This document shows positions 2,945 through 24,960 of a DNA stretch of 64,000 bases, piece by piece. Numbering within the stretch: the first letter of the stretch is position 1; every line of letters starts with the position of its first letter. Source of the DNA: a virus. The stretch is from the IMG/VR virus record IMGVR_UViG_3300021085_002380, one strand, 5' to 3'. A program made the position numbers and the translations under genes. Below the pieces are notes generated by a model. That model had not been told where the DNA came from. It did no database searches and worked only from the letters and a program-made list of their open reading frames with translations.

Positions 2945-3454
2945 TTAGTCTCCTGTACTACCAAAACCTCCATCACGGTCTGTCTTAGAAACGATCGGCT
3001 CAGCAGTTTCATTGATTTCAATTTTTGTAGTCTTTTCGATGATACACTGTGCTAGCCGTTCACCGTTTTCAATCATAACAAGACTGTCTGTTAAATTAGT
3101 CATCATAATGAAAGTTTGTTCTACGTAGTCTGAATCTATAATACCAACATTATTCGCTAATGTCAATCCTTTTTTTAGCGCAACACCCGAACGCACGTAC
3201 ATTTTCATTACATGGTTTTCAGGAATGTCAAACACTAATCCTGTTGGTACTAGTACTCTTGTATCAGGCGGGAGTTGAAACGCATCTCTAACTTTGCCAA
3301 CACCTTTGACGGCAACGTGGGTTTGTTTGTTCCAATTGTTATAGGCTAAAAGTTTATCACCATTTTGAAAGCAACCTTTAATATCAAAACAAGCCGAGCC
3401 TTCTGTTGCGTATGCTGGCAACTCAGCTTTTTCATTCACTTTATATACATTCAT
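2945..3454 (-). CDS. dut: dUTPase (trimeric)
   Basis: SACFDI, RSG, GIIDSDY, RLAQ and RDGGFGSTG motifs. Confidence 0.95.
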   Translation of the reverse strand: MNVYKVNEKAELPAYATEGSACFDIKGCFQNGDKLLAYNNWNKQTHVAVKGVGKVRDAFQLPPDTRVLVPTGLVFDIPENHVMKMYVRSGVALKKGLTLANNVGIIDSDYVEQTFIMMTNLTDSLVMIENGERLAQCIIEKTTKIEINETAEPIVSKTDRDGGFGSTGD

Positions 3455-3457
3455 AAT

Positions 3458-3877
3458 TTATTTTTTTCCTATATTATACTTTGCCTCTAATATCCAATTA
3501 CCTTTCTCTTTATGAGATAGGATCTTGATTTGGTTTAATGGAGCAATTGGGTCTTGAGCGTTATCAGTATCAATAACGTTAACTAATCCCCATTCTTCAA
3601 GCAGGTTAACGATAGTGTTACGCCTTGCTTTATCTTCATCAGCAAACGTGTCTTTTTTACCATCTAAGATAAAAAGTTCTTTAAAGTGTAAAATTGAATA
3701 ACGACCTTGCTTATGTAATATATGGCAAGACTGATACAGCTTTTTCTCTTTGCGGGATGAAATACCAATGCGGGTGAGAGTTTCTTTAATTTTTAAAAAA
3801 CTATCTTGAGTTGGGAGGGAAACCTCAATACCAACACCCTTAAAAATGTTTTCTTCAGATTGCATAACCGACAGCAC
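3458..3877 (-). CDS. regA: Translational repressor RegA
   Basis: FLKIKETLTRIGI, LYQSCHILHKQGRY and HFKELF; follows gp62. Confidence 0.95.
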   Translation of the reverse strand: MLSVMQSEENIFKGVGIEVSLPTQDSFLKIKETLTRIGISSRKEKKLYQSCHILHKQGRYSILHFKELFILDGKKDTFADEDKARRNTIVNLLEEWGLVNVIDTDNAQDPIAPLNQIKILSHKEKGNWILEAKYNIGKK

Positions 3878-3927
3878 CTTTTTATTATTATTATCACTGA
3901 ACGCTCAGTTGCGTTTCTGAATATTTA

Positions 3928-4344
3928 TCATTTCTTTGATTTAGTACCAACGCCGCCTGTTTCTAGCTTCGTATGGATAGTCTTTAAATCTTCAGCTGAT
4001 AACGCCTTAAGGTAAAGCTTTGCTATGGTTCTATTGCATTGATACACTTCCTGAATGGCGTCTAAGTCTATGTTTTTATCAGCTTTTGGCCACTTTGAAA
4101 ACCGTTTGCGTTTACGTAATGCACCACGGTAATAATCAAATTGGGCACGATCAAATAAATGAGCGCGCTGATTTAATTCGTTTGCATGCAGGATAGTATC
4201 TTCAAAGTTTGCAAAGCCACGGTTTACCATATAAGGAACATACAGTCTTTCAGCTTGATCTGGGTTATCATGTTTACCGATAAGATCCTCTTTTGTAAAG
4301 GACACGGCATTCATAAAATCAAATGGTGTTATCTCTTTCGCCAA
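3928..4344 (-). CDS. gp62: Clamp loader small subunit gp62
   Basis: YVPYMVNRG, ANELN and RKRKRFSKW; synteny with gp44 and regA. Confidence 0.9.
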   Translation of the reverse strand: MAKEITPFDFMNAVSFTKEDLIGKHDNPDQAERLYVPYMVNRGFANFEDTILHANELNQRAHLFDRAQFDYYRGALRKRKRFSKWPKADKNIDLDAIQEVYQCNRTIAKLYLKALSAEDLKTIHTKLETGGVGTKSKK

Positions 4345-4525
4345 TTACTTCCTCCAATTCTTTCATCATATCATCAAAATCTTTAGCACAAACTCCACAC
4401 AATTTAAAATTCCATGGTCCTTCAAGCGTATCGAGGTTTACATCGTATATGTCTTTCTTATCAATATACTGTTTGCATTCAAAGCATTGATGCAATCCCA
4501 TTAGTTTTTTGATCCATTCACTCAT
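4319..4525 (-). CDS. Small Zn-ribbon protein
   Basis: CxxC...CxxC. Confidence 0.6.
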   Translation of the reverse strand: MSEWIKKLMGLHQCFECKQYIDKKDIYDVNLDTLEGPWNFKLCGVCAKDFDDMMKELEEVIGERDNTI

Positions 4526-5475
4526 TTGTATTCAGCTTCAATCATTACTTCGGTTAGGAATGCAACCATGTTAACTTCGAGATCTGCAACAAAGTTTGCT
4601 TTGTACATATAATCCGCAAGAGTTACAACAAATCCAGGTAACGATTTCATTAAAACTTTATCAGTTGCCATATCGTAAATACGACGGAACATTTCATTCA
4701 TATCTTGATCGCTATTCTTTGCAACCCATTTACGCATATTGGTAAAGTCTTTTGCTTTTAACAAACGAAACAATTCATCCATAGACTCTTGCTTTAGATT
4801 AACAAAGATACCTTCGTCAATCTTACCTGAAGCTGCATACGATTGTAGCTCAGTAAGTACTCTACGGAAATCAGGAAAATGTTTTTGAATAACTTTGGCA
4901 ACAACATTCTTATCGTAATCAACTGCTTCTGTGTTAAGAATTGTCTCTACACGTTTCATAAATTGCAACGCAAGTTTAGGGCGATCTGTTGTTTCAATAG
5001 TAAAATCAACTTCAGATAACCGAGACCGCAACGGTTGAATAATTCTATTCTTAAAATTACAAGTAAAGATAAAACCACAGTTGGAAGAATATTCTTCAAT
5101 AAAATTACGCAATGCTGGTTGAACATTTGCGGCATTAAGGTAATCAGCTTCGTCAAAGATTACATACTTACGACCACCTTGCAATGATACAGCCGACGCA
5201 TATGTTGATATGTCATAGCGAAGAGTATCAATATTAACGTTCAACGAGCCGTTCTTTACGATGTAATCGCAGCCTAGTTCTTCAAGCATTGCTTTTGCAA
5301 TAGTAGTCTTGCCAACACCTGGACCGCCAGTCAGCAATAAGTTTGGTACACTGTTATCCGTAACAAACTTTGTGAACATTGATTTAGTTTTTTCAGGGAG
5401 AATAGTATCCGCAATCAGTTGCGGCCGATAGCGCTCAACCCAGAGCACTTCATTTTGTTTAGCATCAATAGACAT
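4522..5475 (-). CDS. gp44: Clamp loader large subunit gp44
   Basis: LWVERYRP, Walker A GPGVGKTT, DEAD, PLRSR. Confidence 0.97.
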   Translation of the reverse strand: MSIDAKQNEVLWVERYRPQLIADTILPEKTKSMFTKFVTDNSVPNLLLTGGPGVGKTTIAKAMLEELGCDYIVKNGSLNVNIDTLRYDISTYASAVSLQGGRKYVIFDEADYLNAANVQPALRNFIEEYSSNCGFIFTCNFKNRIIQPLRSRLSEVDFTIETTDRPKLALQFMKRVETILNTEAVDYDKNVVAKVIQKHFPDFRRVLTELQSYAASGKIDEGIFVNLKQESMDELFRLLKAKDFTNMRKWVAKNSDQDMNEMFRRIYDMATDKVLMKSLPGFVVTLADYMYKANFVADLEVNMVAFLTEVMIEAEYK

Positions 5476-5799: not shown

Positions 5800-6465
5800 T
5801 TAGGATCCTTTCTTATAAGTCGACTTTGTATCAATAGCCACGAAATACGTGACGTCTTCACCTTTAAATTCAGAGATACCTTTACTTGACAGCGTAACTC
5901 TGTAATCTTGAGGTAAGAGTTTCAAATTATCAGTTTTGATAATAATCTTAAACTCATCGGCAGTATTGCCAATTTCTACACCGTAGTCATCCGCTGCCGC
6001 AGACGAACTGTCGATGGCCTTTAGGTAACACTTTCCATCCTGGCCAACAAATGCAACTTCATTAAACTGAAGTACACCCGCTGCTTTTTGGACGGATTGT
6101 AAATCATTCCAAGATACATCAACAACCACATCAGCCGAAGGCAATTCAATGGTTTTTTCAGGCGCCGCGTGTATCATGGAGACGTCGGCAAACGCGTAAC
6201 GGGTACGTTGTTTACCTTCTGTGATTACAAAGTATTTATCATGAAACTCCACGTCTGGTGCAGTGTGGAGTGACAAAATTGATAAAAATCTTGACAAATC
6301 GTAAATACATGCTTCAGACGGAAATTGATCTGGGATTGTTGCAGATGCAATCAATGTTTTTTCAGGCGTAATAGTACGAAGAGTGTTACCTTGCTTCATT
6401 AGGATTGATTTGTTGATAGTAGAGAAACTCTTAAGAATAGTAAGAGTGCGTTCAGAAAATTTCAT
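5800..6465 (-). CDS. gp45: Sliding clamp gp45
   Basis: TILKSFSTINKSI, IYDLSRFLS, LKLLPQDYRV; synteny. Confidence 0.95.
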   Translation of the reverse strand: MKFSERTLTILKSFSTINKSILMKQGNTLRTITPEKTLIASATIPDQFPSEACIYDLSRFLSILSLHTAPDVEFHDKYFVITEGKQRTRYAFADVSMIHAAPEKTIELPSADVVVDVSWNDLQSVQKAAGVLQFNEVAFVGQDGKCYLKAIDSSSAAADDYGVEIGNTADEFKIIIKTDNLKLLPQDYRVTLSSKGISEFKGEDVTYFVAIDTKSTYKKGS

Positions 6466-6487: not shown

Positions 6488-7381
6488 TCATTTGTTAATT
6501 TTACTACGTTTTTTGGATTTTGTCAATGGTTTTTTGTAATTCTTTGCATTACTTTTTTTGTTAGCCGTTGGCGACGCGCCAAGCGATCCAAGCGCTGACA
6601 TATTACCATTAAACATATACGATCCTACGTGAGTCATTCTCATCCATGGACACATCCAAACTCGCTTCTGTATTTCTCTTGCCTTTTGACAAAAGAAGTA
6701 ATCTTCAGACAAATAACGGCGAGTCTTTGGGTCAATGATACAATCAAAGAATGCTGTAATGTCGCGCTCACCATCGAAGTTTTCAGTTCTTGCGTGGTCT
6801 GGCTTATATGACAATTCAGGGTACGCAGCTCGATAATCTTCAAATACTTTACGAGGAATCAACATAAATCCTGTACCTGCTTCACCAACTTCAAGAGGTT
6901 GATCCATCTTAAAACTAGTTACTCCACCCACTGGATTGAATACAAAGTCACCAGTAAATTCGTTGAGCTCAAAAGGATTTTCATCACCTTTACCTGCCTT
7001 TGCTGCCATTTGAACTTTTTCCCACGCAATAGTCTTTTTAGGATAAGGTCCAGTCAAAATGTCATACTTATCAGGATCTGAATGATATATTGCCATAAGT
7101 GAAATAACATCTCTTGGATTGAAACCAATATCAGAATCAATAAACATTAAATGGGTTGAGTCTGAGCGTAGGAATTCATCGACAATATAATTGCGAGCTC
7201 GCTGTACTAAACTTTCGTTAAAGAGATAATAAAACTTAATTGGAATTTTATTAGCCGTGCAGAGCATAGCAAGATCGTTACAGGCTTTTGTAAATAGTCC
7301 TGCGCATTGCCCGCCGTACATTGGCGTACCAACGAAGATTTTATATTGCTGTAAGTCTTCAATAGTTACGTTTAAATTCAT
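6488..7381 (-). CDS. GT-A fold (GT2-like) glycosyltransferase
   Basis: GTPMYGG, NESLVQRARN, MFIDSDI (DxD), GTGFMLI and LSEDYFFC. Confidence 0.8.
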   Translation of the reverse strand: MNLNVTIEDLQQYKIFVGTPMYGGQCAGLFTKACNDLAMLCTANKIPIKFYYLFNESLVQRARNYIVDEFLRSDSTHLMFIDSDIGFNPRDVISLMAIYHSDPDKYDILTGPYPKKTIAWEKVQMAAKAGKGDENPFELNEFTGDFVFNPVGGVTSFKMDQPLEVGEAGTGFMLIPRKVFEDYRAAYPELSYKPDHARTENFDGERDITAFFDCIIDPKTRRYLSEDYFFCQKAREIQKRVWMCPWMRMTHVGSYMFNGNMSALGSLGASPTANKKSNAKNYKKPLTKSKKRSKINK

Positions 7382-8013
7382 GTTGTCACCTGTTCTAAAT
7401 CTTCCTCAGCCCTACGAATTGCTTGCATACGTAATACATCAGCTAAAATATCCCACGAGCTGTCGTGAGCTTTAAACATCTGTTCCCAACGTTGTTCGTC
7501 AGCAAATGGAATAAACCCATTCTTTTGCTTAAAATCAAACTTTGCATCAATATAAGTACGTGTATCGCGGACTGCCCAATACTTTAAGTACTCTTCCATA
7601 TGTAATAGTTTATCTTGTGATTGAAATAACCGACCAAGAATAATCGGATCAAACGTATTTGACCTAGACCACCATTTGCTAATCTTTGGTGAGTCAATTA
7701 AAAAGTCATGAAATTGCTTAGTGAAATCCGCCACAGTCAAATCAGTTGGAAGTGGTTTGATATTCCTACGAACTTCAGGTCCTAAGGATTCCCACCATGC
7801 AACTGTGCTTTTGTCAATTTCCCATCCGTAGTTTTTAACTTGATCTACCACGGATAGTTTAAATCGTTTTGTTTTTGAAATATCTGCAAGGGTATATGGA
7901 TCAGCTGAAACCATCTTGTCCCAACTGAATACCATTACAGAACAATCAATCACTGCGCATTTCTGAGCATCTTTACCGAATGTTTCAAAATCTATAATAA
8001 AGTCGTGTTTCAA
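7378..8013 (-). CDS. dexA: DexA-like 3'-5' exonuclease (DnaQ fold)
   Basis: IIDFET, FDPIIL, RDTRT and HDSSWD DEDDh motifs. Confidence 0.8.
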   Translation of the reverse strand: MKHDFIIDFETFGKDAQKCAVIDCSVMVFSWDKMVSADPYTLADISKTKRFKLSVVDQVKNYGWEIDKSTVAWWESLGPEVRRNIKPLPTDLTVADFTKQFHDFLIDSPKISKWWSRSNTFDPIILGRLFQSQDKLLHMEEYLKYWAVRDTRTYIDAKFDFKQKNGFIPFADEQRWEQMFKAHDSSWDILADVLRMQAIRRAEEDLEQVTT

Positions 8014-9221
8014 GCCATGAACTCCTCAAGTGTTGCTTGGTTGTTTTTACCGCCTGGATCAGACCACATGCGTTCATTGTGGTTGTCCTGACGATGGTAA
8101 TTAGTATCTGACATTGTTAACTCGCCACGAATAAACTTGCCGATTTCAGTATGAATATCTCTTGACGTTGGCACAGGAACGTTTTGAGCAATGTGGTTCA
8201 TTTTAGGTAATCCGCCAACAAGCTCAAAGTCATGAGGGAAACCCATAAGATATAAAGCTTCACGGATAGTTAAAGAACGATCGAACTTTGGATGAATTGT
8301 ATCTGCAAGGTTACGGCCGATAACTGCGTTCATACATTCTCCAAAGACGTGAGTTGAACTATCCCAAATACCTTTGCCCATCGCAAACTTTTTAACAGCA
8401 TGGTCTGATACTTTGATACCACGTTCGTTGCCAGTATCATGCATCCATTTATTACAGGCAGGTAATTTGCCACTTTTATTAATATAGTTGAATGCTGTAA
8501 TCTGTCCGCTTTCCATAATGACCTTACGAGGATCTTCGTTTGTTATTGACTTAATGTATTGATAATAAGGTTCTTCATCAAGCTTTTTGTTACACAATAT
8601 ATCCATTTGTTGAATATCATCTGTTAAGTCGTTAAGATATTCATGAAACTTTTTACGAGGTCGTTTATACCAATTCATAATAGGAGCAACTTCTGAGTTC
8701 CAACCAATAGCAAAACAACGATCTCTAGCTTGTGGGATACCATGATACTTTGTAGATGTTTTATATAGAGTTAAACTATACCCTGCTTTTGAGCAAATGT
8801 CAAACAAATTATCAGCTACTTCTTTACCCTTTTTAGTAAACAACGCCGGAGCATTTTCAACAACAATAGCTTTAGCTGAAAAGCGATTAATGCCTTCTTT
8901 AAAAACTTCGTACATCCATTCGTTCTTTTCGCATTTTGCGCCTTTGGCTGCTTCAGTCTTACCAGTGTTAAGCTGTGACAATGCTGCACAAGGTGGCGTA
9001 CCTGAAATAACACTGATATGTCGACTTGAACTTTCAGGAATCATTTTATATTGTACATCACGTCCTTTGACGTTTTGCTGATAGTTAACGTAATGACTAT
9101 CATTTCCTTCAAAGTCCGCGTATGAATATATAGCTTCAGGTGGTTTTCCAAAAGCTTTTTCTGCTCCTAGCATTTGTCCACCGATTAGTGGAATAATTGG
9201 GGCCCATGTAATTTCGCTCAT
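8010..9221 (-). CDS. DNA cytosine-C5 methyltransferase-like protein with atypical motifs I and X
   Basis: GTPPC (IV), VENAP (VI), PQARDR (VIII), LTIREA..LMGFP (IX); start MSEITW after a GAGG RBS. Confidence 0.85.
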   Translation of the reverse strand: MSEITWAPIIPLIGGQMLGAEKAFGKPPEAIYSYADFEGNDSHYVNYQQNVKGRDVQYKMIPESSSRHISVISGTPPCAALSQLNTGKTEAAKGAKCEKNEWMYEVFKEGINRFSAKAIVVENAPALFTKKGKEVADNLFDICSKAGYSLTLYKTSTKYHGIPQARDRCFAIGWNSEVAPIMNWYKRPRKKFHEYLNDLTDDIQQMDILCNKKLDEEPYYQYIKSITNEDPRKVIMESGQITAFNYINKSGKLPACNKWMHDTGNERGIKVSDHAVKKFAMGKGIWDSSTHVFGECMNAVIGRNLADTIHPKFDRSLTIREALYLMGFPHDFELVGGLPKMNHIAQNVPVPTSRDIHTEIGKFIRGELTMSDTNYHRQDNHNERMWSDPGGKNNQATLEEFMA

Positions 9222-9231
9222 TTTATATCCT

Positions 9232-10488
9232 CTATGCAAAAAAGTCTTCAAGTGTCGCAGCTTTTGTCTTTGTAAACTGTGCTGTATCAGGTCTTGTATA
9301 ATTTGGGTCTGCAGCTTTCATAATGTTATCATTAATGAAGCTACCGTCATAATATTCAGGTTTAAGAATTGCTTTACGCAGTCCTTTTAAAACCGTTTCA
9401 TATTCTGTTGGGTTGTCAATTAGTCGTTGCATATTCGTATAAAATTCTTCAGGCGTTTTTGGCCGTAAGAAATCAGGAATAGGCAAATGACCTTGGTCGT
9501 CATAAGTTGGGTGAAGGAAAGGAATAACACCAGCGTGAATCATTTCAATATATTTTGATGTGGTCCAGCCTTCTTTAATTGGAATAATAAATGTAAACTT
9601 AACGTCTTGTAATTTATCTTGGATTTCATTGATATGCAATGATCCTTTAAACCTTTCATCACTTTCAGCGCGTTCGTCAAGCCACTTACCATATATATCA
9701 ACATTATCGAATTTATCAAGTACCCAGTTCTTGAGTAAGTTATAGCGTGATGGTTTACCTTCATTAAGTACAACCATAAAGTCTGTCTTGCGATCTGTAT
9801 TTACTTCTTCAGTGTATTCATAATCGCCACAAAACGCAGTTTCCATTCCTGCATATTCAGAATGAACAACGCGGACTAGCCTTTCTTGGTTTTCATAATC
9901 AGTAATAGAAAATGTTTCATAATCGTAATCATATTGTCCAAGAGAACGGAAAGGCATATGAAATACGTCACGTGGTTGTTTAATAACATATCTTGGATCG
10001 TTAACAACTTCTATCCAACGCGGCTTACTTTCGTTTAGCCATTTAGTAATAGGAGTTGTATACCATTTAGTCATATCAAGAGTTGCTGCTGGTTTACCGT
10101 CTTGTTGGCTTTCACGTACTTTCCAAATTTTATCTGGGATTGTGACATTACTAATTTGCCCAATCATCATAACAGAAAAATCAAGCTCAATGTTTTTAAA
10201 ATAATTAATGATGTGATTATAATATGCTTCGGACATTGCCAACGGAACGCCTTGCCAACAATCAATTACATTATCATATGGAAACAAATTTAGGCGTTCA
10301 GTATCAGACAGCGCAGCAAAGTCAGAACGACCAATTAGGTAAAAAGTTTTGTCCGGATTATTGTTTGCCATAGCTCGTATGGTACAAGACGCTTCGTTAT
10401 CTCCACCAATTGGAGAGTACTTGTTAGTTTTAAATTTAATAGATTTACCAATTTTTGCGAAACCAATGTTTTTCATAATCACTTCCAT
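9232..10488 (-). CDS. GT-B fold glycosyltransferase, probably DNA-modifying (BGT-like)
   Basis: NDPR, IYGKW and TSKYIEMIHAGVIPF; genomic context; clamp-binding-like C-terminus TLEDFFA. Confidence 0.65.
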   Translation of the reverse strand: MEVIMKNIGFAKIGKSIKFKTNKYSPIGGDNEASCTIRAMANNNPDKTFYLIGRSDFAALSDTERLNLFPYDNVIDCWQGVPLAMSEAYYNHIINYFKNIELDFSVMMIGQISNVTIPDKIWKVRESQQDGKPAATLDMTKWYTTPITKWLNESKPRWIEVVNDPRYVIKQPRDVFHMPFRSLGQYDYDYETFSITDYENQERLVRVVHSEYAGMETAFCGDYEYTEEVNTDRKTDFMVVLNEGKPSRYNLLKNWVLDKFDNVDIYGKWLDERAESDERFKGSLHINEIQDKLQDVKFTFIIPIKEGWTTSKYIEMIHAGVIPFLHPTYDDQGHLPIPDFLRPKTPEEFYTNMQRLIDNPTEYETVLKGLRKAILKPEYYDGSFINDNIMKAADPNYTRPDTAQFTKTKAATLEDFFA

Positions 10489-10844
10489 TCCATCATCTTA
10501 ACAAACTCTTCAGGAGTCATTGCTTTATCATCAATATAATATACACCGTATGGTTTACCCCACACAATTTCATCATAAGGTACTTCGTACTTATCCAACC
10601 AGTCTGTGGTTATTTTTCCGACGTCATTAATAATTTTATTTATGTCACCGTCATGAGTGAGCATTCGCCGCGCGGTATGGAGTACAATGCGATATCCGTT
10701 TTTCTTTGCTTTTTGTAAACTTGCAATCATTGGGCGATTAGGATTTGCCATCCCATACTTAACTTCAGATTCAGATCTGCCGTGCAACGGCGTGCAAATC
10801 GTATCATCAATATCAACTACTAAGGTTTGCGTATTCATTAACAT
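10479..10844 (-). CDS. HAD-family phosphatase (capsule biosynthesis EcbF/BcbF-like)
   Basis: VDIDDTIC, LHTARRM, GKP and YIDDKA. Confidence 0.85.
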   Translation of the reverse strand: MLMNTQTLVVDIDDTICTPLHGRSESEVKYGMANPNRPMIASLQKAKKNGYRIVLHTARRMLTHDGDINKIINDVGKITTDWLDKYEVPYDEIVWGKPYGVYYIDDKAMTPEEFVKMMEWK

Positions 10845-12294
10845 AATCTCTCATTCTTTGTTGGCGTTCTTCACAGTCATAGTGAAGTTTAATGCATGTA
10901 GCAATTAACAGAGCGCCGCCGTCAATAATTTCATTATAATCATCAGGAAAGTACTCTTTGACTAATTCAGAAAAGCATTCCCGTACTGCTGTGGGGTATT
11001 TATGCCCTGTCACCAACTCGTTATATCCATGATATAAATCGTGCGACAACTTACACATATCGTAAAGATAATCACCACCGATACCTCTATGATCGCCATA
11101 GGATCCGCGTGGATCTAATAACGTAAAGGCATCATTATATGGATTATATAGAATATTACCAAAGTGTAAGTCACCGTGCATAGCATCAACAGGACGTGCC
11201 TTTTGTAAACAACGCTCAGCAACATTTTTATAAAACGGATCATCTGTTTCTAAACGCTGTTCAGTTTTATCAATCCACATCTTCTTTGCGTTATCAGGAA
11301 ACGACGCTGTAAATTCAAGTGTTGGTTTGCGATGAAAGTGGTTCCACATTGTAAGTATAACTCTTTCAATCAAATAGCGTATAGTGCTTTTCGATATATC
11401 TTCATGTGCAAATAAATCAGATAGCAAAATGCCTGACTCATAAGACATGGTCAGGGAATAGTCATCTTTCAATACTTTAGGAACAAGCATACTTTGGATT
11501 GGTGATAACGAAGTATACCAATTCTTTTCATCAATAATTGTTTGAGTGGCAAAACTGTTATTTGGTGTTGGTACCTTCGTAATCATATTGAGATCAGGGT
11601 GGTATTCGAACGAATTAAACTCTCTCGCTTTAAACGTCAATAGTGTAGCACAAGTTTTGTGGTATGAAGCAATATCACCAATGTCGTACCATTTTTCCGT
11701 GTTGATATTATCAAATGAAGCGTGTTCTTCATATAACTCCAAAGCATCTGATATGTCATAACCTTTTGAGTAGTGAAAAGCGTGATATGCTTCGTATCCT
11801 CTACTGAAACTGTATAGACCTACAAGAGCTGAAGCTTGGTCAATATTTTCTTTTGGTTTATTAAAGTATTTTTTACCATCCCACATGCACCAAGCAAAGT
11901 GATCTTCAACTTCTTTTGTTAATAAAAAGTCAGTGCCTAAAGGTAATTCTTCTTCAAGAATAATTGCATCTCCTAGCCATACAACTAAAGGATATGTAGG
12001 ATTTTCTAAATTTTTAATACCAACATTAATAGCATCACGAGGACCGTTAAGAGATCCTTGTTTTACACACTTAATGTTATCGTATTTAGATTTTTTAACC
12101 CAGTCACGAATATCGTCATGCTTACCGTCGACTATAACAATTTGGCTTACTTCGACACCGCTTTTATTAATTGACTCAACGATATATTCAATAGTAGGTT
12201 TACCATGTACGCGGATCATTGCCTTTGAGCAATTTGCAGTTAGTGGCTTTAGTCTTGTTGCCTCACCTGCCGCCGGTATTACTACATTTATCAT
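10813..12294 (-). CDS. Sugar nucleotidyltransferase fused to an APH/choline-kinase-like phosphotransferase
   Basis: N-term IPAAGEATRLKPLT..SKAM and WYDIG; C-term HGDLHFGNIL and LDPRG. Confidence 0.85.
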   Translation of the reverse strand: MINVVIPAAGEATRLKPLTANCSKAMIRVHGKPTIEYIVESINKSGVEVSQIVIVDGKHDDIRDWVKKSKYDNIKCVKQGSLNGPRDAINVGIKNLENPTYPLVVWLGDAIILEEELPLGTDFLLTKEVEDHFAWCMWDGKKYFNKPKENIDQASALVGLYSFSRGYEAYHAFHYSKGYDISDALELYEEHASFDNINTEKWYDIGDIASYHKTCATLLTFKAREFNSFEYHPDLNMITKVPTPNNSFATQTIIDEKNWYTSLSPIQSMLVPKVLKDDYSLTMSYESGILLSDLFAHEDISKSTIRYLIERVILTMWNHFHRKPTLEFTASFPDNAKKMWIDKTEQRLETDDPFYKNVAERCLQKARPVDAMHGDLHFGNILYNPYNDAFTLLDPRGSYGDHRGIGGDYLYDMCKLSHDLYHGYNELVTGHKYPTAVRECFSELVKEYFPDDYNEIIDGGALLIATCIKLHYDCEERQQRMRDYVNEYANLSS

Positions 12295-12925
12295 AATTTA
12301 ATCTCCACTCGTCGTATTCATCTTCAAGCAATGCCCAACGCATTTTAGTTAATCCTGGCGGATACTTTTTATTCCAAATAAACCAAGCGTATGCAATCAT
12401 GCCGCCGATCTGATCTTTCTTTTCAATTGGTTCTACGATATTAGAATCAAATCTAACTCGATCTGATAAAAATATTATATCACTAGGAGGGTTAGATGTA
12501 AATAGTTTATTTCGTTTTTTTCCTTCAAGAAATGTTAAACGAAGAAACATAGCTACATATTCATATTCGTCAATCCACTTTTCAGCTAACTTACGTGGTA
12601 AGTCTTTGTGATATGGCGGATTAGTTACTACACCTTGAGCCCATTCATTCTTAGGTAATTCCATTGCATCATAAGAAGTATTTATGCTACATAAAGAATC
12701 GGAATATTCGTTGAGATCATAACTTAAAACATTGTGACCATTCCGTGCAAGCTCGACCGAAATGTTACCACGGCCAGCGCAGGGTTCAAGTAAATTTTGT
12801 GGAGGTTTACCATACTTACATAATATGTATGTAGCAAGTGGTGGTGTTGGATAAAAGTCATTCTTTTTACGATTAGGATCGTTTTTCTTAACGCCAACAT
12901 ATATATCAGTCAGATTATTAGCCAA
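12263..12925 (-). CDS. DNA N6-adenine (amino) methyltransferase
   Basis: DFYPTP, LEPCAGRG, VTNPPY and YAWFIW. Confidence 0.85.
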   Translation of the reverse strand: MANNLTDIYVGVKKNDPNRKKNDFYPTPPLATYILCKYGKPPQNLLEPCAGRGNISVELARNGHNVLSYDLNEYSDSLCSINTSYDAMELPKNEWAQGVVTNPPYHKDLPRKLAEKWIDEYEYVAMFLRLTFLEGKKRNKLFTSNPPSDIIFLSDRVRFDSNIVEPIEKKDQIGGMIAYAWFIWNKKYPPGLTKMRWALLEDEYDEWRLNYDKCSNTGGR

Positions 12926-13427
12926 ACTGCGTTACCAATACACCTGCCTCTTTAAACATAGGCTCCGATTTTTCATTCCACAGGTTAACCCATTTTTCTG
13001 GAGTATTCATTACGAATTTGTTAATAACAATTCTACGAATGCCTGCTTGGATAATAAGCTTAGTACAGTCAGGACACACAGGTAATCCATGAACATACAT
13101 TGTTGCATTTTTTAGAGAAACGCCAGCGTAAAGAGCATTCATCAACGCATTTGTTTCAGCATGAACAATAAGCGGATATTTTTGTTCTCTATCGTTTAGT
13201 CTTTCTTGACTATCTTCAATACCCTTTGGGAAACCGTTATATCCTGTTGCCAAAATACGACGCTCATCGTTAACCGCAACTGCACCAATTTTGCTTGAAG
13301 GATCTTTACTCCAAGTTGAAATGTGGTGAGCCATAACCATAAAGCGATCATCCCATTTCAACTGGCGAATATCTTCTTCTCGGCCGCGCCGCCGCATATA
13401 TGCCTCGTAAGGCTCACGTTCTTCCAT
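12918..13427 (-). CDS. cd: dCMP deaminase
   Basis: WSKDPS, TGYNGFP, HAETNA and CPDC. Confidence 0.95.
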   Translation of the reverse strand: MEEREPYEAYMRRRGREEDIRQLKWDDRFMVMAHHISTWSKDPSSKIGAVAVNDERRILATGYNGFPKGIEDSQERLNDREQKYPLIVHAETNALMNALYAGVSLKNATMYVHGLPVCPDCTKLIIQAGIRRIVINKFVMNTPEKWVNLWNEKSEPMFKEAGVLVTQFG

Positions 13428-13955: not shown

Positions 13956-14648
13956 TTATACAACCAAGTCAAAGTGGCGCTCATATACGTGCAAATTCAT
14001 AGCTTGCCATGTAAGCATACCTTTATCAATAGTGAAGTGTTTATTGCCAGGAAGTTTACATTGTTCATTCCATTGAGCAACAAACTTATCCATAAGATAT
14101 TGAGCCCAAGCATAGTCGTTTTTATAGCCAAAGATTGCGTCGTTAGAACGCATTTGTGACACCATCATCAGAATGCCATCGCGGATATAAAACGTTTGTG
14201 CATTAGTGCAAATAAAGTCAGACTTACCACCTTCATCAAACTCAACCCAAATAGATGGACGATTGTAAATCATTTGAGCACGACGGCTATCAGGGTTACT
14301 CCACAGTTCATCAAAAGCATTTTGGAATTGGTTATGATATTTTTTAGAGAATACTAAATGACCATAATTAGAATTAATATTACCATAATCATCAGCAGAG
14401 TATTTCCATGCCGCAGGCGGAGCTTTGATTTTGCCATGAATATCATAGATATTTGTTGATTGCGACTCATACCAAGCAAGCTCAGAGTTAATATAAGCTT
14501 GACTTGGTTCGCCAAAGATTGCAGGTTCTGTTGCAAGAAAGTTTGCGCCTATTAATTCAATAGTCCTTTGGCCTGTCTTATCAATTGTAAATGCTTCATC
14601 TTTGAGTTCACCTTTAAAGAATTCACGGATATCGTGTACACTATCCAT
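13956..14648 (-). CDS. gp42: dCMP hydroxymethylase-like thymidylate synthase homolog
   Basis: ELAWYES, INSNYG, SDFICTN, MRSNDAIFGYKNDYAW (Asp at the cytosine-specificity position), LHVYERHF; closely parallels T4 gp42. Confidence 0.9.
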   Translation of the reverse strand: MDSVHDIREFFKGELKDEAFTIDKTGQRTIELIGANFLATEPAIFGEPSQAYINSELAWYESQSTNIYDIHGKIKAPPAAWKYSADDYGNINSNYGHLVFSKKYHNQFQNAFDELWSNPDSRRAQMIYNRPSIWVEFDEGGKSDFICTNAQTFYIRDGILMMVSQMRSNDAIFGYKNDYAWAQYLMDKFVAQWNEQCKLPGNKHFTIDKGMLTWQAMNLHVYERHFDLVV

Positions 14649-14896: not shown

Positions 14897-15451
14897 TCAA
14901 TTCTCATTACGAACTCCATCTAAAAAATTTACAACGGTATCATATGTGTTACCTACTCCACCGTTCTTTGTTATATTTATGCTCAGCTTATGTTTACAAC
15001 TTGACTCGTTAAACGCCGTTGTAAACGCGTTACGACTATATAAGAAATCTTCTTTACTTTGTTCAAGACTTTCGCCATCATCACGAGACATAATACCATC
15101 AGTAGTATCAGTCAACAAAACTAATGCAGCGTTTTTGTACCCACTGAGAAACCTTCGGTCCAATTCATAAATGTCTTTGCCGTCTGCAGCACGGTACTTT
15201 TCGCCATAAACGATTGCGCCGAGATGGAAACGGTCAAAGATAATATCATAATTCATTTGATTTACGAGTCGTTTGGATGCAATGAACAAAGACTCATAAT
15301 GTTCTTTTTCCCAACCATTAGGATCTTCAAAGTCAGGAGGAGAAGATGAATGGTGAGCCATTATGTTTGGATTTTTAAAATATTTTTTACGTAGGTTTTG
15401 CACCAATGTGGATTTACCACAGCGATCCATACCTTCAATGATTAATAGCAT
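14897..15451 (-). CDS. dNMP/thymidylate kinase-like protein
   Basis: IIEGMDRCGKST P-loop; FDRFHL. Confidence 0.85.
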   Translation of the reverse strand: MLLIIEGMDRCGKSTLVQNLRKKYFKNPNIMAHHSSSPPDFEDPNGWEKEHYESLFIASKRLVNQMNYDIIFDRFHLGAIVYGEKYRAADGKDIYELDRRFLSGYKNAALVLLTDTTDGIMSRDDGESLEQSKEDFLYSRNAFTTAFNESSCKHKLSINITKNGGVGNTYDTVVNFLDGVRNEN

Positions 15452-19995: not shown

Positions 19996-20730
19996 TTAGC
20001 CTAAACCCAATCTATTCATTTCATCGAGAGCGTCTTGTCGTATAGCTCTTAAAATTATACCTCTTCGAACTACATCAGATTTGTTTGGCATAACACTATG
20101 TAATGTGTTTCCATAAAAGCACATAAATCTTCCTAGCTCAATTGTTTCTTGTATGCAGTTATCTTCAAAAAATCTATCATAAGGACTTGGTTCACTATCA
20201 GGCCTTAACATATCTTTTGGATTGTATTTGTATTTATGAGTGCCTGGAACATATCCAGTAGATCCGTTTTCCGGAGTAAATTCTATAAGTGGTACCATAA
20301 ACGTAATACTTAGCGGACCTTCTTGTAAATAATTATCCATTCTCAATTCTGGCATTTGTGGCCAAACATAAGGAGCATCTAAATGAATTCTTACAGGACA
20401 TTCATGTTTACAATTGGATATGATATAACGATTAGTTAGCTGCCATCCCCAAGACGTTTTAAACACTTCGTTACAAACATTTTCTAATGCTGGGAATATA
20501 GTATTATTGATGTAAGTATTATCTTCAGGAATTTGAGACCAATAATAAGCCCAGTCAGGATTTACTATATCTTTTACTTTATCGTTATTGATCCAATCAA
20601 AGTTTTGAAGCATTCCAACAAAAGGAGATAGATTACCTGCAATATCATTCAAGGAAAGGATTTTGGTTTCGTCAAATACCTTTCCTGAAATGGCAAAGCC
20701 ATCATCTTTTAAATCAAATAAGTTTACCAT
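19996..20730 (-). CDS. PhyH-family 2OG-Fe(II) dioxygenase
   Basis: HLDAPY (HxD), ENGSTGYVPGTH and LHSVMPN.S..R. Confidence 0.85.
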   Translation of the reverse strand: MVNLFDLKDDGFAISGKVFDETKILSLNDIAGNLSPFVGMLQNFDWINNDKVKDIVNPDWAYYWSQIPEDNTYINNTIFPALENVCNEVFKTSWGWQLTNRYIISNCKHECPVRIHLDAPYVWPQMPELRMDNYLQEGPLSITFMVPLIEFTPENGSTGYVPGTHKYKYNPKDMLRPDSEPSPYDRFFEDNCIQETIELGRFMCFYGNTLHSVMPNKSDVVRRGIILRAIRQDALDEMNRLGLG

Positions 20731-21278
20731 TTTACTATATAATAATTTTCGTTGAGTGGTTCTATTATTGGATTGTATTCTTTGAGCTCAAACTGCAATT
20801 GTTCTTTTGTGTAGAAGTAGCAGTTTTCATCAAAGCCATCTTTATACCATTCGCCATAAAATACAAAGAATGCGTGGTTGGCATTAAACGCTTTATAATG
20901 GTCTAACAGTTTAGGCAATCCAATATAGTTAGGTGTACCAAACATACTAACTAATACATTACACTCATTGTCAATTGGTTTACTGCAATCCGCTAATTCA
21001 AATTTATAGTCTGGATACTTTTTCTTAGCGTTATTTAACATACCTTCTGATATGTCATATCCTACAAAATAACTTGGGTGAGGCATATTCAAAATAGGAA
21101 TATCTTGTCCTGATCCAACACCTAAAGAAATAATCTTGCCAGGAGATTTTCTTTTCATCCAAAATTTATGAGCATCGTATTCGTCTTTCATGTATGGATT
21201 TGTTTCCCATCCACCTTCTACATATTTTTGTTCGTACCACGCTGAAGCTTCGTCATACTTATCTTTTAAAGTTACCAT
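20724..21278 (-). CDS. Class I SAM-dependent methyltransferase
   Basis: SLGVGSG, GYDISEGML and ADC. Confidence 0.85.
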   Translation of the reverse strand: MVTLKDKYDEASAWYEQKYVEGGWETNPYMKDEYDAHKFWMKRKSPGKIISLGVGSGQDIPILNMPHPSYFVGYDISEGMLNNAKKKYPDYKFELADCSKPIDNECNVLVSMFGTPNYIGLPKLLDHYKAFNANHAFFVFYGEWYKDGFDENCYFYTKEQLQFELKEYNPIIEPLNENYYIVKW

Positions 21279-21952
21279 CCTATATCACCATATTTCATTA
21301 TTGCATCGTCTGTCATTTCGTCAAGTGTTGTGCCTTGCTCGTTATCTAATTGTTTATATCCCCATTCTAATTCTCTACATCCCATACAGTCTTCGCAAGG
21401 AGTATCAGCACTAATGTTACAAGAGATAGTATGGTTTAAAATAGAATCAAAGTTACCTCTTCTAGCTAAATCAATTATATGATATTTTTCAATATGCTCA
21501 AAAGGATTTTTAAGAAAAGAGTCGTTCGTTAACCAGGGTCTTTTAGCAATACCTCTTTGCTCAGGATTCCATCTTGGAAACCATTGAGGATGCGGTGTTA
21601 ATATATTACCACAATAAAGTTCTTCGCAATCTGTATTATCTCGTATTTCCTGAAAAGCTCTACAGAGTCTAGGATAATGAGATGTCATAGGCCAGTGCCA
21701 ACGGCTTTGACCAACTATTTCCAACTCTGTTGAAACGTTTAATTTTTTAAGAATGTTTTCTATTAGTGGTTTGTGAGGATCTTCGCTAGTTTGAACATTA
21801 AATATTCTTATCTTTGTATCCGGAAAGTTATCCGTTAATAATTTAAAAAGAGTGGTACTATCAGCGCCAGAGGACATTAGAACACCGATCTTTTTAGCTG
21901 GGGATAAATTTACAATCCTTTCATCCCACTGCGGTCCACACACAAATTTCAT
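21272..21952 (-). CDS. QueC-like PP-loop ATPase
   Basis: SSGADS PP-loop; PF....K; TISC...PCEDCMGC Zn site. Confidence 0.75.
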   Translation of the reverse strand: MKFVCGPQWDERIVNLSPAKKIGVLMSSGADSTTLFKLLTDNFPDTKIRIFNVQTSEDPHKPLIENILKKLNVSTELEIVGQSRWHWPMTSHYPRLCRAFQEIRDNTDCEELYCGNILTPHPQWFPRWNPEQRGIAKRPWLTNDSFLKNPFEHIEKYHIIDLARRGNFDSILNHTISCNISADTPCEDCMGCRELEWGYKQLDNEQGTTLDEMTDDAIMKYGDIGW

Positions 21953-21954
21953 AA

Positions 21955-23703
21955 TTATGCCTCGTCAAATACTAATTCAAAGTTTTTCGATATAAGATGA
22001 ACCATTATCACGCCTTCAACACCTATTTCTGTTTCCAATTCTCGTTTTGCCATTCCATGCTCTTTGGTACCATGCGTAAACGCTTTTAAGTTTCTATATA
22101 GATGTTTATGATGCCACCTTTTTGGTAATGGAAACAACTTAACTTTATTCTTTTTGGTTTTGTATGCCATGATAGTTTCGTTATCGTACCCAAAGGCAGA
22201 TTGGATTTGTGGGAGATACATTGAAAACTCGTCCTCTTTCAGATCCTTCATCATTTGGATTACATCGTCAATATCACTAAAGTAATCTATTTGTTCCATA
22301 ACAGCGCGGCTTGCAACCATAATACCAGTGTTAAAAATGTATTGGTCAGATTCGTAACCTTCTTCTTCAAGCATAGCATGAGCATTCCAAAATTTACTAT
22401 GCGGACTCCTAAAATCAAAGTTATACCATTTGTAATAGTCGTTACTTGCTTTGCGAACTCCTGCGTTCCGAGCTGTTTGAACTTGACAACAAAAAGTTGT
22501 ACTCGCCGGTACGTAATCAAAGATACTATGCGGTTTTGTAAAATAAACATCGAGATCAACATATAAGACCAAATCATAATCATATGTCAGTTTATCAAGT
22601 AGCCAAACTTTATATAGATTAATTACATCATATTCCGAAAGGTCAGGGAACTTACTCAAAAACTCTTCGTATTGTTCATCACGTTTAAAATGAATGTATT
22701 TTGAACCAATTTCCTTTGCATACCATTCATGGTTTTCAATTAACCTATCTTTATATTGCGCCAGACGATCTTTAGTTCTTTTGCTTTTATTTACATCGTC
22801 ATCAGGCGGGCCAACTGGGTCGTCAAGCTTATCATCAGGAATATCTATATGGATTGAATAGATAGCTGTTGTCTTATCTTTAAAAAACGCGTTGAACTTT
22901 TTATTGATAAAGTGAATTATATTTACATCTTTTATTTTAGTATCGTTAGGTCTGTGATCCACGATCCAATGCCACTTATCGTCCATAATTTGATATGGTA
23001 CTTTGTATTTTTCAAGGATATAGGAAAAGATAGACTCGTTGTTAGCATAATAGTTTATTCTTAAGTATGCTAATTGTCTATGGTCTTTATTGTCAGGATC
23101 TTCAGGTTCGTAAAGTCTAATGTCTTGTATTTTGGCATAAGCTTCTTGCATTCTTTCGACATATTTAATTTGTTTAATATGCTCGCTTTTACCAATCATA
23201 ATACCAGTGTTTATAACATGGTTATCTCCACCATCCAAAAGGTCTTTTGTAATATGATATTTTAGAGTTGGGTTGCGCATTCCAACAGAAGAATATAAAA
23301 CATCATTAACTTCTTTTGATTGGATTTCATCATCCATATCTTTAATCGCAATACCTTTTGACAAATCCAATTCGTCAAATACATTTAGGTCTGTATTAAA
23401 TACCACATCCATGTCAACATACATAACTTCATCGTATTCTTCTGCAAGCTTAGCAAACAAGTGGTGTTTATACAAGTTAACCTTTGTAAATTGCATTTCG
23501 TTTTTAACGTCAAAATCTTTTATTTCATTACGATAAAAAATCCAATCAGCACCGATCTTTTCGCAGTACTCTTTTTTGTTTTTAACTAATCTATCAAAGT
23601 ACTCTTCTACTGACTGTTCGTTTGCCATAAAAATCCAATGGCGTTCCTCGTCATTAACCATGTCGTCAATTTCATCGTAACAACTAAAAATTACTCTTTT
23701 CAT
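21955..23703 (-). CDS. Two-domain glycosyltransferase (internal duplication)
   Basis: Both halves carry NLYK, YVD(M/L)DV, NTGIM and NE(S/T)I. Confidence 0.75.
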   Translation of the reverse strand: MKRVIFSCYDEIDDMVNDEERHWIFMANEQSVEEYFDRLVKNKKEYCEKIGADWIFYRNEIKDFDVKNEMQFTKVNLYKHHLFAKLAEEYDEVMYVDMDVVFNTDLNVFDELDLSKGIAIKDMDDEIQSKEVNDVLYSSVGMRNPTLKYHITKDLLDGGDNHVINTGIMIGKSEHIKQIKYVERMQEAYAKIQDIRLYEPEDPDNKDHRQLAYLRINYYANNESIFSYILEKYKVPYQIMDDKWHWIVDHRPNDTKIKDVNIIHFINKKFNAFFKDKTTAIYSIHIDIPDDKLDDPVGPPDDDVNKSKRTKDRLAQYKDRLIENHEWYAKEIGSKYIHFKRDEQYEEFLSKFPDLSEYDVINLYKVWLLDKLTYDYDLVLYVDLDVYFTKPHSIFDYVPASTTFCCQVQTARNAGVRKASNDYYKWYNFDFRSPHSKFWNAHAMLEEEGYESDQYIFNTGIMVASRAVMEQIDYFSDIDDVIQMMKDLKEDEFSMYLPQIQSAFGYDNETIMAYKTKKNKVKLFPLPKRWHHKHLYRNLKAFTHGTKEHGMAKRELETEIGVEGVIMVHLISKNFELVFDEA

Positions 23704-24368
23704 TTTCCAATTACCATATATTGCGTATAATCTTCAGCCGGTTTCAATTCGCCTTTCCAATATACTGCGTTTAAATTTAATTCTTCTACAAACGAGTCTA
23801 AGCTATCATGAGTATTAATATGACCAGGTTCTGTGTGATAGTTATTGCTTTGAAAACATATTAAAGTGTTATAAGGTTTTTGCCTTAATACTAATTGAAT
23901 ATCATCCTTTTCCATATGCTCGCAACTTGTATTGATAATGAGCTGAAAATGATCTGTCTTTTCAAAATAGTATTCCATTGCGTCATCAGTAATAGGCCAA
24001 ATGTTTTCGTACTCGCCGTCGATTAGTTTATAACTGACCGTTTCACACAGTGGATCAGAGTCTACATTGTGTATTTTAATATCAGGACTTATATGATTTT
24101 TTAATATTATTCCTACAGTACCATACCAACTATCCATAACTAAAATGTCATTTAGTTTACCGTCAGTGTCAGGCCAAAATCTTTCTTTATTAATAAACGG
24201 AAGGAGGTTATGAACAAGCCATTCTTTGCTTTCTAGTTGCACGTCGTTAACAGCGTTCATGACATCAAAGCTTCTATAAAGATCCTCGGACGGATCATAC
24301 TTGCTTTGTTGATATATTTCTTCTATTATTTTAAGTGCATTTTTATAAAGATTTTGTCGGTAACTCAT
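23700..24368 (-). CDS. Class I SAM methyltransferase-like protein (INTSCEH type)
   Basis: SKEWL, SWYG, VDSDP, IINTSCEHM and QSNNY. Confidence 0.65.
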   Translation of the reverse strand: MSYRQNLYKNALKIIEEIYQQSKYDPSEDLYRSFDVMNAVNDVQLESKEWLVHNLLPFINKERFWPDTDGKLNDILVMDSWYGTVGIILKNHISPDIKIHNVDSDPLCETVSYKLIDGEYENIWPITDDAMEYYFEKTDHFQLIINTSCEHMEKDDIQLVLRQKPYNTLICFQSNNYHTEPGHINTHDSLDSFVEELNLNAVYWKGELKPAEDYTQYMVIGK

Positions 24369-24960
24369 ATTTCAATCCATTATACATATCAATTGGCGCA
24401 TCCCATTCCGCCGGGGTTTTAACACTACTTACAATACCGTTTGTAAATGTATTATGCGGTATTTTTTCGTGAACTAAAAATCTATCTATACCTTTATACT
24501 TACGCATAAAATAATCTTTGTTGGACATAAAGTGATCCCATACATGGTTCTGTTCACCAGCTATCCATGTAATTACAGAACTATTTATATGTACATCGTA
24601 GGCGTGTGGTGCCATGTACAAATCGTTTTTCCAATAGTCTCTGATTATCGTCAAGCCGTCCCACTTGATAAACTCAGAAGGATCTCTCTTAATATCCATA
24701 TCTAAATCAAAGAAAAGACATTTGCCTGTAACTGGAAAGTCTTCACTAAACATAGCTAGCTTGTTCCACCAATACTTTAACGATGGTTTGTTAAAACAAG
24801 GTATGAATGGAATATTTAAACCTGCAGGAAATTCTGTATAGCAATAATAATTAGCATTAGGATAAAACTCTTTCAGCTGTGTATGCAGCCTATTCACATG
24901 TTCAGTGTGATACTTATTTCCATGCTTTACAAATATAATATTCATTTTAATTTTCCACAT
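24343..24960 (-). CDS. GT-A glycosyltransferase
   Basis: KHGNKY, WWNKL, FFDLD, INSSVITW and GIDRF. Confidence 0.75.
   Translation of the reverse strand: MWKIKMNIIFVKHGNKYHTEHVNRLHTQLKEFYPNANYYCYTEFPAGLNIPFIPCFNKPSLKYWWNKLAMFSEDFPVTGKCLFFDLDMDIKRDPSEFIKWDGLTIIRDYWKNDLYMAPHAYDVHINSSVITWIAGEQNHVWDHFMSNKDYFMRKYKGIDRFLVHEKIPHNTFTNGIVSSVKTPAEWDAPIDMYNGLKYELPTKSL

Follow-up and report, generated by a model that had tools for sequence, protein, structure and literature searches.

A C5-methyltransferase-fold gene with a rebuilt cofactor pocket

We analysed a stretch of 64,000 nucleotides (hereafter the window) from a marine T4-like phage, IMG/VR virus record IMGVR_UViG_3300021085_002380, centring on a gene at positions 8010..9221 of the minus strand whose 403-amino-acid product has the DNA cytosine-C5 methyltransferase fold. 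We place this methylase-like protein in a phage subfamily termed PLxGG/QNVP, an assignment that draws on the open reading frame (ORF), a PF00145 match, an AlphaFold2 (AF2) model searched with Foldseek, and family alignments. A preliminary description of this DNA had called the ORF a C5-methyltransferase with degenerate motifs for binding S-adenosylmethionine (SAM) in a genome predicted to have cytosine already substituted at C5. The ORF itself is borne out, as it starts with an ATG at 9221 with an AGGA ribosome-binding site 7 nt upstream, and this start position is the same in all aligned homologues; an alternative longer TTG start at 9251 would overlap the end of the upstream gene.

PF00145 (C-5 cytosine DNA methylase) covers residues 13-361 at 86 bits, against a Pfam cut-off of 22, and the AF2 model (mean predicted local distance difference test, or pLDDT, of 79.7; built on 15 homologues) shows a target-recognition domain inserted into a class I methyltransferase fold. 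Its best Foldseek matches were M.HaeIII, the CP-933R methylase 3g7u, CmoX (8yf3) and M.HhaI, all with a probability of 1.0. The likeness to M.HhaI, M.HaeIII and E. coli Dcm (PF00145), with a template-modelling score of ~0.6 on the target, extends to the Pro-Cys, Glu-Asn and Gln-x-Arg-x-Arg elements, to a motif IX reading R-E-x-x-x-L-M-G-x-P-x-D-F, and to the domain layout, in which the catalytic domain comes first, then the variable recognition domain and then motif X.

Reading the motifs from the sequence together with family counts revealed an intact catalytic set, as the preliminary description had reported, with PPC in motif IV (GTPPCAALS, 8976..9002; canonical PCQ), ENA in motif VI (ENAP, 8847..8858; canonical ENV) and QARDR in motif VIII (8718..8732; QxRxR), all on the minus strand. 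Conservation was counted over 140 full-length family representatives that are ~30-72% identical to the window protein, and the catalytic residues Cys78, Glu122, Arg166 and Arg168 are each present in 140/140. Residues in the motifs that hold the cofactor in canonical enzymes are replaced. Motif I (9177..9194, minus strand), read from the sequence and set against three canonical enzymes and the 3g7u alignment, is IPLIGG in place of F-x-G-x-G-G; its Phe position is Ile, Val or Gln in the family, and Pro11 (126/140), Leu12, which replaces the first Gly (132/140), and Gly14 and Gly15 (135/140 each) are kept at 90-96%. At the end of strand beta-2, the site of the canonical ribose-binding Glu and an aromatic residue (E47-F48 in CmoX and E40-W41 in M.HhaI), HMMER alignment to 3g7u, the model and column counts place Ser33-Tyr34 (9120..9125, minus strand). 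Ser33 is aligned to the 3g7u Glu and occupies the beta-2 end in the AF2 model; this motif II position is Ser or Thr rather than acidic in 128/140 representatives, and the position of Tyr34 is aromatic (Tyr, Phe or Trp) in 120/140. Glu63, assigned to motif III by position only, lies just after model strand 58-60 and is Asp or Glu in 112/140 and Asn in 18/140.

Further replacements surround the site of transfer. The Gln of PCQ is Ala79 (Ala or Ser in 133/140) and the Val of ENV is Ala124 (139/140), while motif X (8175..8192, minus strand), placed by HMMER against DNMT1-type chains and 8yf3 and by family counts, reads IAQNVP in place of G-N-A/S-V-P, with Gln346 in 136/140 and Asn347 in 134/140. 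HMMER aligned Gln346 to the Asn of the canonical Gly-Asn (Asn304 of M.HhaI) and to Arg350 of CmoX, so the window protein has Ala-Gln-Asn in motif X and PC-Ala in motif IV where canonical enzymes have Gly-Asn and Gln, a one-residue register shift in motif X being possible. The preliminary description had given the same readings of motifs I and X, and we confirmed both directly from checked coordinates; the deviations reach beyond the two motifs that it listed. The comparison with canonical enzymes rests on three sequences (the Dcm, Fnu1 and Melnitz methylases), PDB alignments and the literature; all three have F-x-G-x-G-G, Glu or Asp plus an aromatic residue, x-D-I and ENV, and two of the three have PCQ. 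In M.HhaI, Gln82 and Asn304 form part of the pocket wall that surrounds the transferred group, and the Q82A mutant methylates more slowly (PMC3526304). The choice of carboxy-SAM by CmoX is made by its residue at the Asn304 position, and its adenosine contacts come from Phe25, Phe48, Glu47 and Asp69 (PMC12783734).

The window protein carries the subfamily signature of P-L-x-G-G, a Ser/Thr motif II, PC(A/S)GLS, ENAP, HGxPQxRxRTF and QNVP, whose elements occur at family frequencies of 85-100%. Because the substitutions are near-invariant in so divergent a set of representatives, the altered motifs are better described as selected than as decaying, and the word "degenerate" does not fit them; judged from the alignments, the pocket changes are under strong purifying selection. 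Three of the residues packed around C5 are reduced in size relative to canonical enzymes (Gln to Ala, Val to Ala, Phe to Leu) and the methionine end of the SAM site is bulkier (Gly to Leu, Asn to Gln), which leads us to read the pocket as one that would suit a 5-substituted cytosine or a donor other than SAM. The family has thus kept the machinery for attack on C6 of the cytosine ring and has remodelled both the site of the donor and the room next to C5. SAM binding has likely been lost in the family, and we go no further than likely because part of the adenine-type site (Tyr34, Glu63 and Gly14-Gly15) may survive. The proposal of the preliminary description is thus supported in part: the altered motifs that it noted belong to a conserved rebuild of the cofactor pocket, and the different cofactor or chemistry that it suggested remains a prediction.

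A large family carried almost only by viruses

A word-based search returned 690 relatives, all metagenomic, and an exhaustive profile search gave 385 representative clusters at E < 1e-30. Cultured phages with family members include Pseudoalteromonas phage vB_Psh_XG4 and the S-TIM5-group cyanophages; a megablast of the gene island around the window gene against cultured phages found no match. Across 185,579 species genomes, pattern scans with alignments A2 and A1 picked up no more than three relatives, each on a contig of a metagenome-assembled genome. A gp42-type gene is present on two of these three contigs and a kinase on two of three, and the contig lacking a gp42-type gene (3.4 kb) has genes for a HAD protein, a nucleotidyltransferase-kinase and a glycosyltransferase of the GT-B fold. 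The family is a large branch of the DNA cytosine-C5 methyltransferase fold and is in essence confined to viruses. No restriction partner was seen among the loci annotated. One metagenomic phage cluster, locus L089, holds two paralogues (3338-4720 and 10001-11278) with motif I reading FIPLVGP in one and LQPLIGG in the other; each has T-L-x-D-F-F at its C-terminus, and between the two genes, downstream of a gp42-type gene, lie genes of a sugar pathway.

Linkage to gp42-type dCMP hydroxymethylases

The window encodes a gp42-type dCMP hydroxymethylase of 230 amino acids (13956..14648, minus strand; 195 bits and 44% identity to T4 gp42, PDB 1b5e) 4.7 kb upstream of the methylase-like gene, in a cluster with DNA-glycosylation genes. 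Among such homologues of thymidylate synthase (TS), diagnostic positions in ThyA numbering are an Asp at N177 for a dCMP substrate, an acidic residue at L143 for a hydroxymethyl product, and D169N for a 5-hydroxycytosine synthase (Lee et al. 2026, PMC13326640). The window TS homologue has the D-C-D-D set, with catalytic Cys148, Asp179, and Asp at the ThyA-169 and ThyA-143 positions. Asp at all three diagnostic positions (N177, L143 and D169), together with the catalytic Cys, identifies it as a T4-type dCMP hydroxymethylase rather than an RB69-type 5-hydroxycytosine synthase. Synthesis of 5-hydroxycytosine as in RB69 was considered as a candidate and is ruled out by the Asp at D169 and by the identity of 44% to T4 gp42 versus ~28% to the enzyme of phage Thanatos. 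Of the premise that C5 is already substituted in this genome, the precursor step thus stands, on the gp42-type enzyme and its diagnostic residues, while the extent of cytosine replacement is presumed. Four relatives with a completeness of at least 91% encode a MazG-like pyrophosphatase, and phage XG4 has a T4 gp56 homologue directly after its methylase-like gene.

Co-occurrence was assessed in up to 80 viral loci per subclade, from three subclades that are 30-50% identical to one another. Among loci of at least 15 kb, a gp42-type TS gene lay no more than 10 kb away in 21/24 loci of the close clade (A1), 25/59 of A2 and 17/18 of A3, for a total of 63/101, and the TS homologues in the three locus sets all have D-C-D-D, bar one fragmentary match. 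On contigs of at least 70 kb lacking a nearby copy, a TS homologue was found elsewhere on the contig in 7/7 cases, and phage XG4 also has a gp42-type TS. Control loci with canonical FxGxG methylases, a set skewed to Dcm-like genes of temperate enterobacterial phages, had a gp42-type TS at 0/33 (at least 15 kb) and at 0/79 in the full set; kinship inflates all of these counts, and the contrast is still large. The preliminary description had named a distribution independent of gp42 as a ground for abandoning its proposal, and the family passes on this point with 63/101 loci against 0/33 in the control. These observations support the view that this is not an ordinary stand-alone methylase gene.

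Cyanophage S-TIM5 was taken up as a counter-example when a gp42 protein query found no match in it, a status that a Pfam search overturned by revealing a TS homologue with N177D, 3 kb from the PLVGG gene. The TS homologue, F417_gp076 (L002:8781-9617, minus strand), is annotated "thymidylate synthase" and has Asp at ThyA N177 (GVPLD) and Cys at L143. From these residues F417_gp076 is probably a dCMP-modifying enzyme rather than a dTMP synthase, and S-TIM5 DNA may for that reason carry modified cytosine.

A polymerase-like C-terminal tail

The methylase-like protein ends in ATLEEFMA (8013..8036, minus strand), which we consider a candidate peptide for binding the gp45 sliding clamp on the basis of its likeness to polymerase tails. 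The clamp gene lies nearby (5800..6465, minus strand; PF09116, phrog_223, 32% identity to T4 gp45). Both the methylase-like protein and the product of the adjacent upstream gene, a glycosyltransferase resembling T4 beta-glucosyltransferase (BGT), end in T-L-E-x-F-F/M-A, and the C-terminus of T4 gp43 is ASLDFLFG, its gp45-binding peptide. Comparing tails in the four relatives that are at least 91% complete, we found TLEDFFG, SLESFFM, TLESFFV and TLESFFM in the polymerase (gp43), TLEEFFA or TLEGFFV in the methylase-like protein, and TLEDFFA, TLEAFF or TLADFFV in the glycosyltransferase. We infer from this likeness that the tail may bind the clamp, and a polymerase-like tail fits the suggestion in the preliminary description that the enzyme acts "at the fork". 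Many members outside the T4-like clade (e.g. P0148, P0153, P0155, P0162 and P0163) end in ...K-x-L-F or Q-L-F, resembling bacterial beta-clamp motifs, and tail type may accordingly track the clamp type of each phage.

The surrounding gene island

In the direction of transcription (minus strand throughout), the island, which adjoins the replication genes, begins with a thymidylate-kinase-like nucleotide kinase (14897..15451; weak PF02223 match), followed by the TS homologue and a dCMP deaminase (12918..13427; PF00383). A 220-amino-acid ORF (12263-12925) comes next; it has no Pfam match and is kept in the islands of most close relatives. After it lies a sugar-1-phosphate nucleotidyltransferase-kinase fusion resembling AfhE and DLP3 gp82 (10813..12294), with PF00483 at the N-terminus and a weak kinase-like match at the C-terminus, and then an HAD-type phosphatase of the sugar-activation module (10479..10844; weak PF25109 match, phrog_1238). 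The gene directly upstream of the methylase-like one encodes the BGT-like GT-B DNA glycosyltransferase of 418 amino acids (9232..10488), which ends in ATLEDFFA and has no Pfam match; its AF2 model (pLDDT 85.7) is nearest to T4 BGT, with Foldseek matches to 1nzd, 1qkj and 1j39, and 10 nt separate its stop codon from the methylase-like ATG. Downstream, a Rv2179c/DexA-like 3'-5' exonuclease (7378..8013; PF16473, phrog_255) has a TTG start that overlaps the methylase-like stop (TTGA), and it is followed by a phrog_1574 protein (6488..7381) that is glycosyltransferase-A-like by a weak Anp1 match, and by gp45 and gp44.

The BGT-like gene is the adjacent upstream gene in 55/65 close-clade loci. More broadly, the co-directional upstream ORF matched a DNA glycosyltransferase seed in 97 of the 204 loci with enough upstream sequence, the seed types being BGT-like, AGT (PF11440), TAGT (PF20691) and two untyped cluster ORFs. 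The other upstream ORFs were sampled by one representative from each of ten groups, the largest of which, an NAD-dependent epimerase/dehydratase, accounts for 62 loci. Further groups are represented by a UDP-glucose dehydrogenase, a UDP-galactopyranose mutase, a nucleotidyltransferase-HAD fusion, a GT25 protein and another glycosyltransferase, and the remaining groups comprise one resembling the helical domain of a 5-hydroxymethyldeoxyuridine (5-hmdU) DNA kinase, one with a weak class-I methyltransferase match and two with no Pfam match. Sugar chemistry therefore differs between clusters, and the methylase-like gene stays at or near the operon end.

A 484-amino-acid ORF at L131:8535-9989 (also in L140, L141 and L144) has a weak match to the helical domain of the 5-hmdU DNA kinase (PF18723). 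It immediately precedes the methylase-like gene, and the TS homologue of its cluster is dCMP-specific, which hints at phosphorylation of 5-hydroxymethylcytosine (hmC) in DNA. The island of Enterococcus phage Planchet, a Gram-positive phage (L087, OX422066.1 45313-60413), holds a kinase, a TS or hydroxymethylase, a dUTPase, an HAD-type "polynucleotide kinase", a large glycosyltransferase, a BGT-like homologue, an RNase H-like gene and another glycosyltransferase. Elsewhere in the window, a run of minus-strand genes at 19996-29405 encodes a PhyH-like dioxygenase, a class-I methyltransferase-like protein, a QueC-like protein and four radical-SAM ORFs (two with SPASM), and this run is not conserved beside the methylase-like gene in relatives.

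A proposed role in phage DNA modification

Taken together, these observations indicate that the methylase-like protein is probably a step of phage DNA modification. Beyond this, we favour, at what we judge to be an even chance, the view that the family supplies a dedicated accessory enzyme of hmC and glycosyl-hmC DNA pathways that performs SAM-independent or altered-cofactor C5 chemistry on new hmC DNA. Its substrate, cofactor and product are what we infer from the rebuilt pocket and the gene neighbourhood. The enzyme would be expressed from the same operon as the BGT-like glycosyltransferase and would dock on the gp45 clamp through its C-terminal T-L-E-E-F-M-A peptide, scanning newly replicated phage DNA behind the fork and flipping out a cytosine-type base. 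Cys78 would attack C6 of that base, with assistance from Glu122 and Arg166/Arg168, and the chemistry that followed at C5 would be SAM-independent or use an altered cofactor, rather than being ordinary SAM methylation of unmodified cytosine. We doubt ordinary methylation because both the SAM space and the C5 surroundings are rebuilt (Phe to Ile, Gly to Leu, Glu to Ser, Gln to Ala, Val to Ala, Asn to Gln). In the version we prefer, a "mop-up", the enzyme would convert escaped cytosine to hmC with a one-carbon donor at the formaldehyde level, and the neighbouring glycosyltransferase would trap the product; this would account for the strict gp42 link, the pairing with each phage's glycosyltransferase, and the tail. 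Nearly as likely, in our view, the enzyme would exchange or remove the hydroxymethyl oxygen of hmC itself. Canonical C5-methyltransferases offer a chemical background for such a reaction, as they form covalent complexes with hmC DNA and can remove or exchange the hydroxymethyl group if SAM is absent (PMC11347137).

Several points weigh against this account. The target-recognition region is variable across the family and some clusters hold two paralogues, which gives the family the look of sequence-specific enzymes rather than of a universal mop-up; hydroxymethylation of escaped cytosine leaves both features unexplained, and the version acting on hmC itself comes without a conserved donor gene. 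With Gly14-Gly15, the aromatic residue 34 and the acid at 63 kept, an adenosine-type ligand, SAM included, could bind, and motif X can be read with the one-residue shift that would put Asn347 in place of Asn304. Searches with T4 gp56 and MazG-like queries found no dCTPase within the 64-kb window, so full replacement of cytosine here is presumed, and the skew of the control set noted above tempers the co-occurrence contrast. T4 itself has no need of an enzyme of this kind. The methylase-like gene is also missing from the otherwise matching cluster of phage Planchet, which makes it an accessory rather than a core part of the pathway.

Part of this evidence would suit an ordinary SAM-dependent C5 methyltransferase with a divergent but working pocket, which would methylate a few residual cytosines or a particular motif and so shield the DNA from restriction by the host or from nucleases of the phage itself that attack cytosine-containing DNA. 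The PF00145 match with all catalytic motifs present, the retained motif I GG, Tyr34 and Glu63, and the variable recognition region with paralogue pairs, as in sequence-specific methylases, all speak for it. We nevertheless regard it as unlikely, though deserving serious attention, since five pocket residues that are near-universal in canonical enzymes have given way to others that the family conserves in turn, one of these being a natural equivalent of the Q82A change that lowers M.HhaI methylation (PMC3526304). Canonical methylases, moreover, do not lie beside gp42 (0/79 control loci), and an ordinary enzyme would find almost no substrate in hmC DNA and give no reason for the tie of one clade to gp42. 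The changed N304 position, a Q82 position that is small as in enzymes engineered for bulky cofactors, and the presence of 8yf3 among the best sequence and fold matches bring to mind instead an enzyme that, like CmoX with its carboxy-SAM, takes a bulkier group than methyl from a modified SAM and transfers it. We consider such a transfer improbable here, as the selecting residue is Gln346 rather than a carboxylate-binding Arg, the adenine-stacking Phe and ribose-binding Glu that CmoX keeps are lost, and donor synthesis is missing as a conserved feature of the clusters; CmoA (TIGR00740) had no match in a near-identical contig or in the four relatives at least 91% complete, in a search whose E. 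coli control matched.

The link with hmC phages could also be turned outward, with a SAM-free enzyme deaminating or covalently trapping unmodified cytosine so that cytosine-containing host DNA is shut off or destroyed and hmC phage DNA is spared. Canonical C5-methyltransferases do deaminate cytosine to uracil when SAM is lacking, and the hmC link would provide host selectivity. The clamp-type tail common to polymerase and glycosyltransferase and the position as last gene of the modification operon point rather to nascent phage DNA, and an enlarged C5 space would be unnecessary for plain cytosine; we give this idea very little credence. Equally slight, in our estimate, is the chance that the altered cofactor motifs mark a non-catalytic or decaying relic, or a mere DNA-binding or base-flipping factor, given that Cys78, Glu122, Arg166 and Arg168 are invariant (140/140), that the new pocket residues are conserved at 90-97%, and that the family spans 385 representative clusters at the profile threshold given above. 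Weighing these alternatives, we retain accessory C5 chemistry on new hmC DNA as our preferred account.

Relation to known systems and significance

The family departs from canonical C5 methyltransferases both in its P-L-x-G-G, Ser/Thr motif II, PC(A/S), ENA-P and Q-N elements with a C-terminal clamp-type tail and in its occurrence, which is nearly confined to viral contigs where genes for a dCMP hydroxymethylase and DNA glycosyltransferases lie next to it. CmoX of Synechococcus phage S-B43 (8yf3; PMC12783734) likewise re-uses the fold in a phage and alters the C5 product through a change at the N304 position. CmoX, however, keeps Phe25, Glu47, Phe48, Asp69 and Arg350, whereas this family has Ile/Val, Ser, Tyr and Gln there, and the genomic companions of CmoX are CmoA and CmoY, those of this family gp42 and glycosyltransferases. 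TET-associated phage C5-methyltransferases (PMC8256090) also lie inside cytosine hypermodification clusters with glycosyltransferases, with hmC as the handle. Those enzymes make 5-methylcytosine at GpC that a TET dioxygenase oxidises after replication, whereas here gp42 would make hmC before replication; Tet_JBP (PF12851) had no match in the near-identical contig or in the four relatives at least 91% complete, in a search that had no positive control. CmoX and the TET-linked methylases are thus precedents for re-use of the fold, and the window protein fails the defining features of CmoX (Arg at N304, and CmoA).

The sugar-related part of the island recalls the clusters of T4 alpha- and beta-glucosyltransferases and of RB69/DLP3 arabinosylation, which share a TS homologue, nucleotide kinase, HAD phosphatase, nucleotidyltransferase-kinase and GT-B gene near replication genes, and the sugar-activation genes of the window resemble the AfhE/AfhF-type module of arabinosylating phages (PMC13326640). 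The RB69 and DLP3 clusters have no C5-methyltransferase-fold gene, and both phages make 5-hydroxycytosine (D169N), whereas the window TS homologue keeps the Asp of the T4 gp42 type. The atypical SAM-free reactions of canonical C5-methyltransferases in vitro (hydroxymethyl removal, aldehyde addition and thiol coupling; cited in PMC11347137) use the same covalent C6 chemistry on a 5-substituted cytosine with an empty cofactor site, as the present enzyme would have to, and are side reactions of ordinary enzymes in the test tube. In the literature searched, we found no natural enzyme dedicated to these reactions, no described DNA cytosine hydroxymethyltransferase and no published description of the PLxGG/QNVP family, and neither the MetaGPA paper nor the pelagimyophage paper mentions such a methylase.

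Hypermodified DNA is one of the chief means by which phages counter restriction and CRISPR, and the pathways that make it supply enzymes for epigenome sequencing and DNA labelling; here a large, conserved, virus-only branch of a textbook family occurs where the textbook substrate should not exist, with its cofactor-choosing residues rewritten. If the enzyme proved to be a plain methylase, this would mean that hmC phages keep measurable unmodified cytosine. It is conceivable, though we put it somewhat short of an even chance, that the family represents the first natural enzyme dedicated to atypical chemistry on the C5-methyltransferase fold, tethered to the replisome and independent of SAM, which would either hydroxymethylate stray cytosine after replication or swap the hydroxyl of hmC through the C6 adduct. 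Such SAM-free one-carbon or exchange chemistry on DNA would be a new type of reaction and a possible tool for site-specific writing or derivatisation of hmC.

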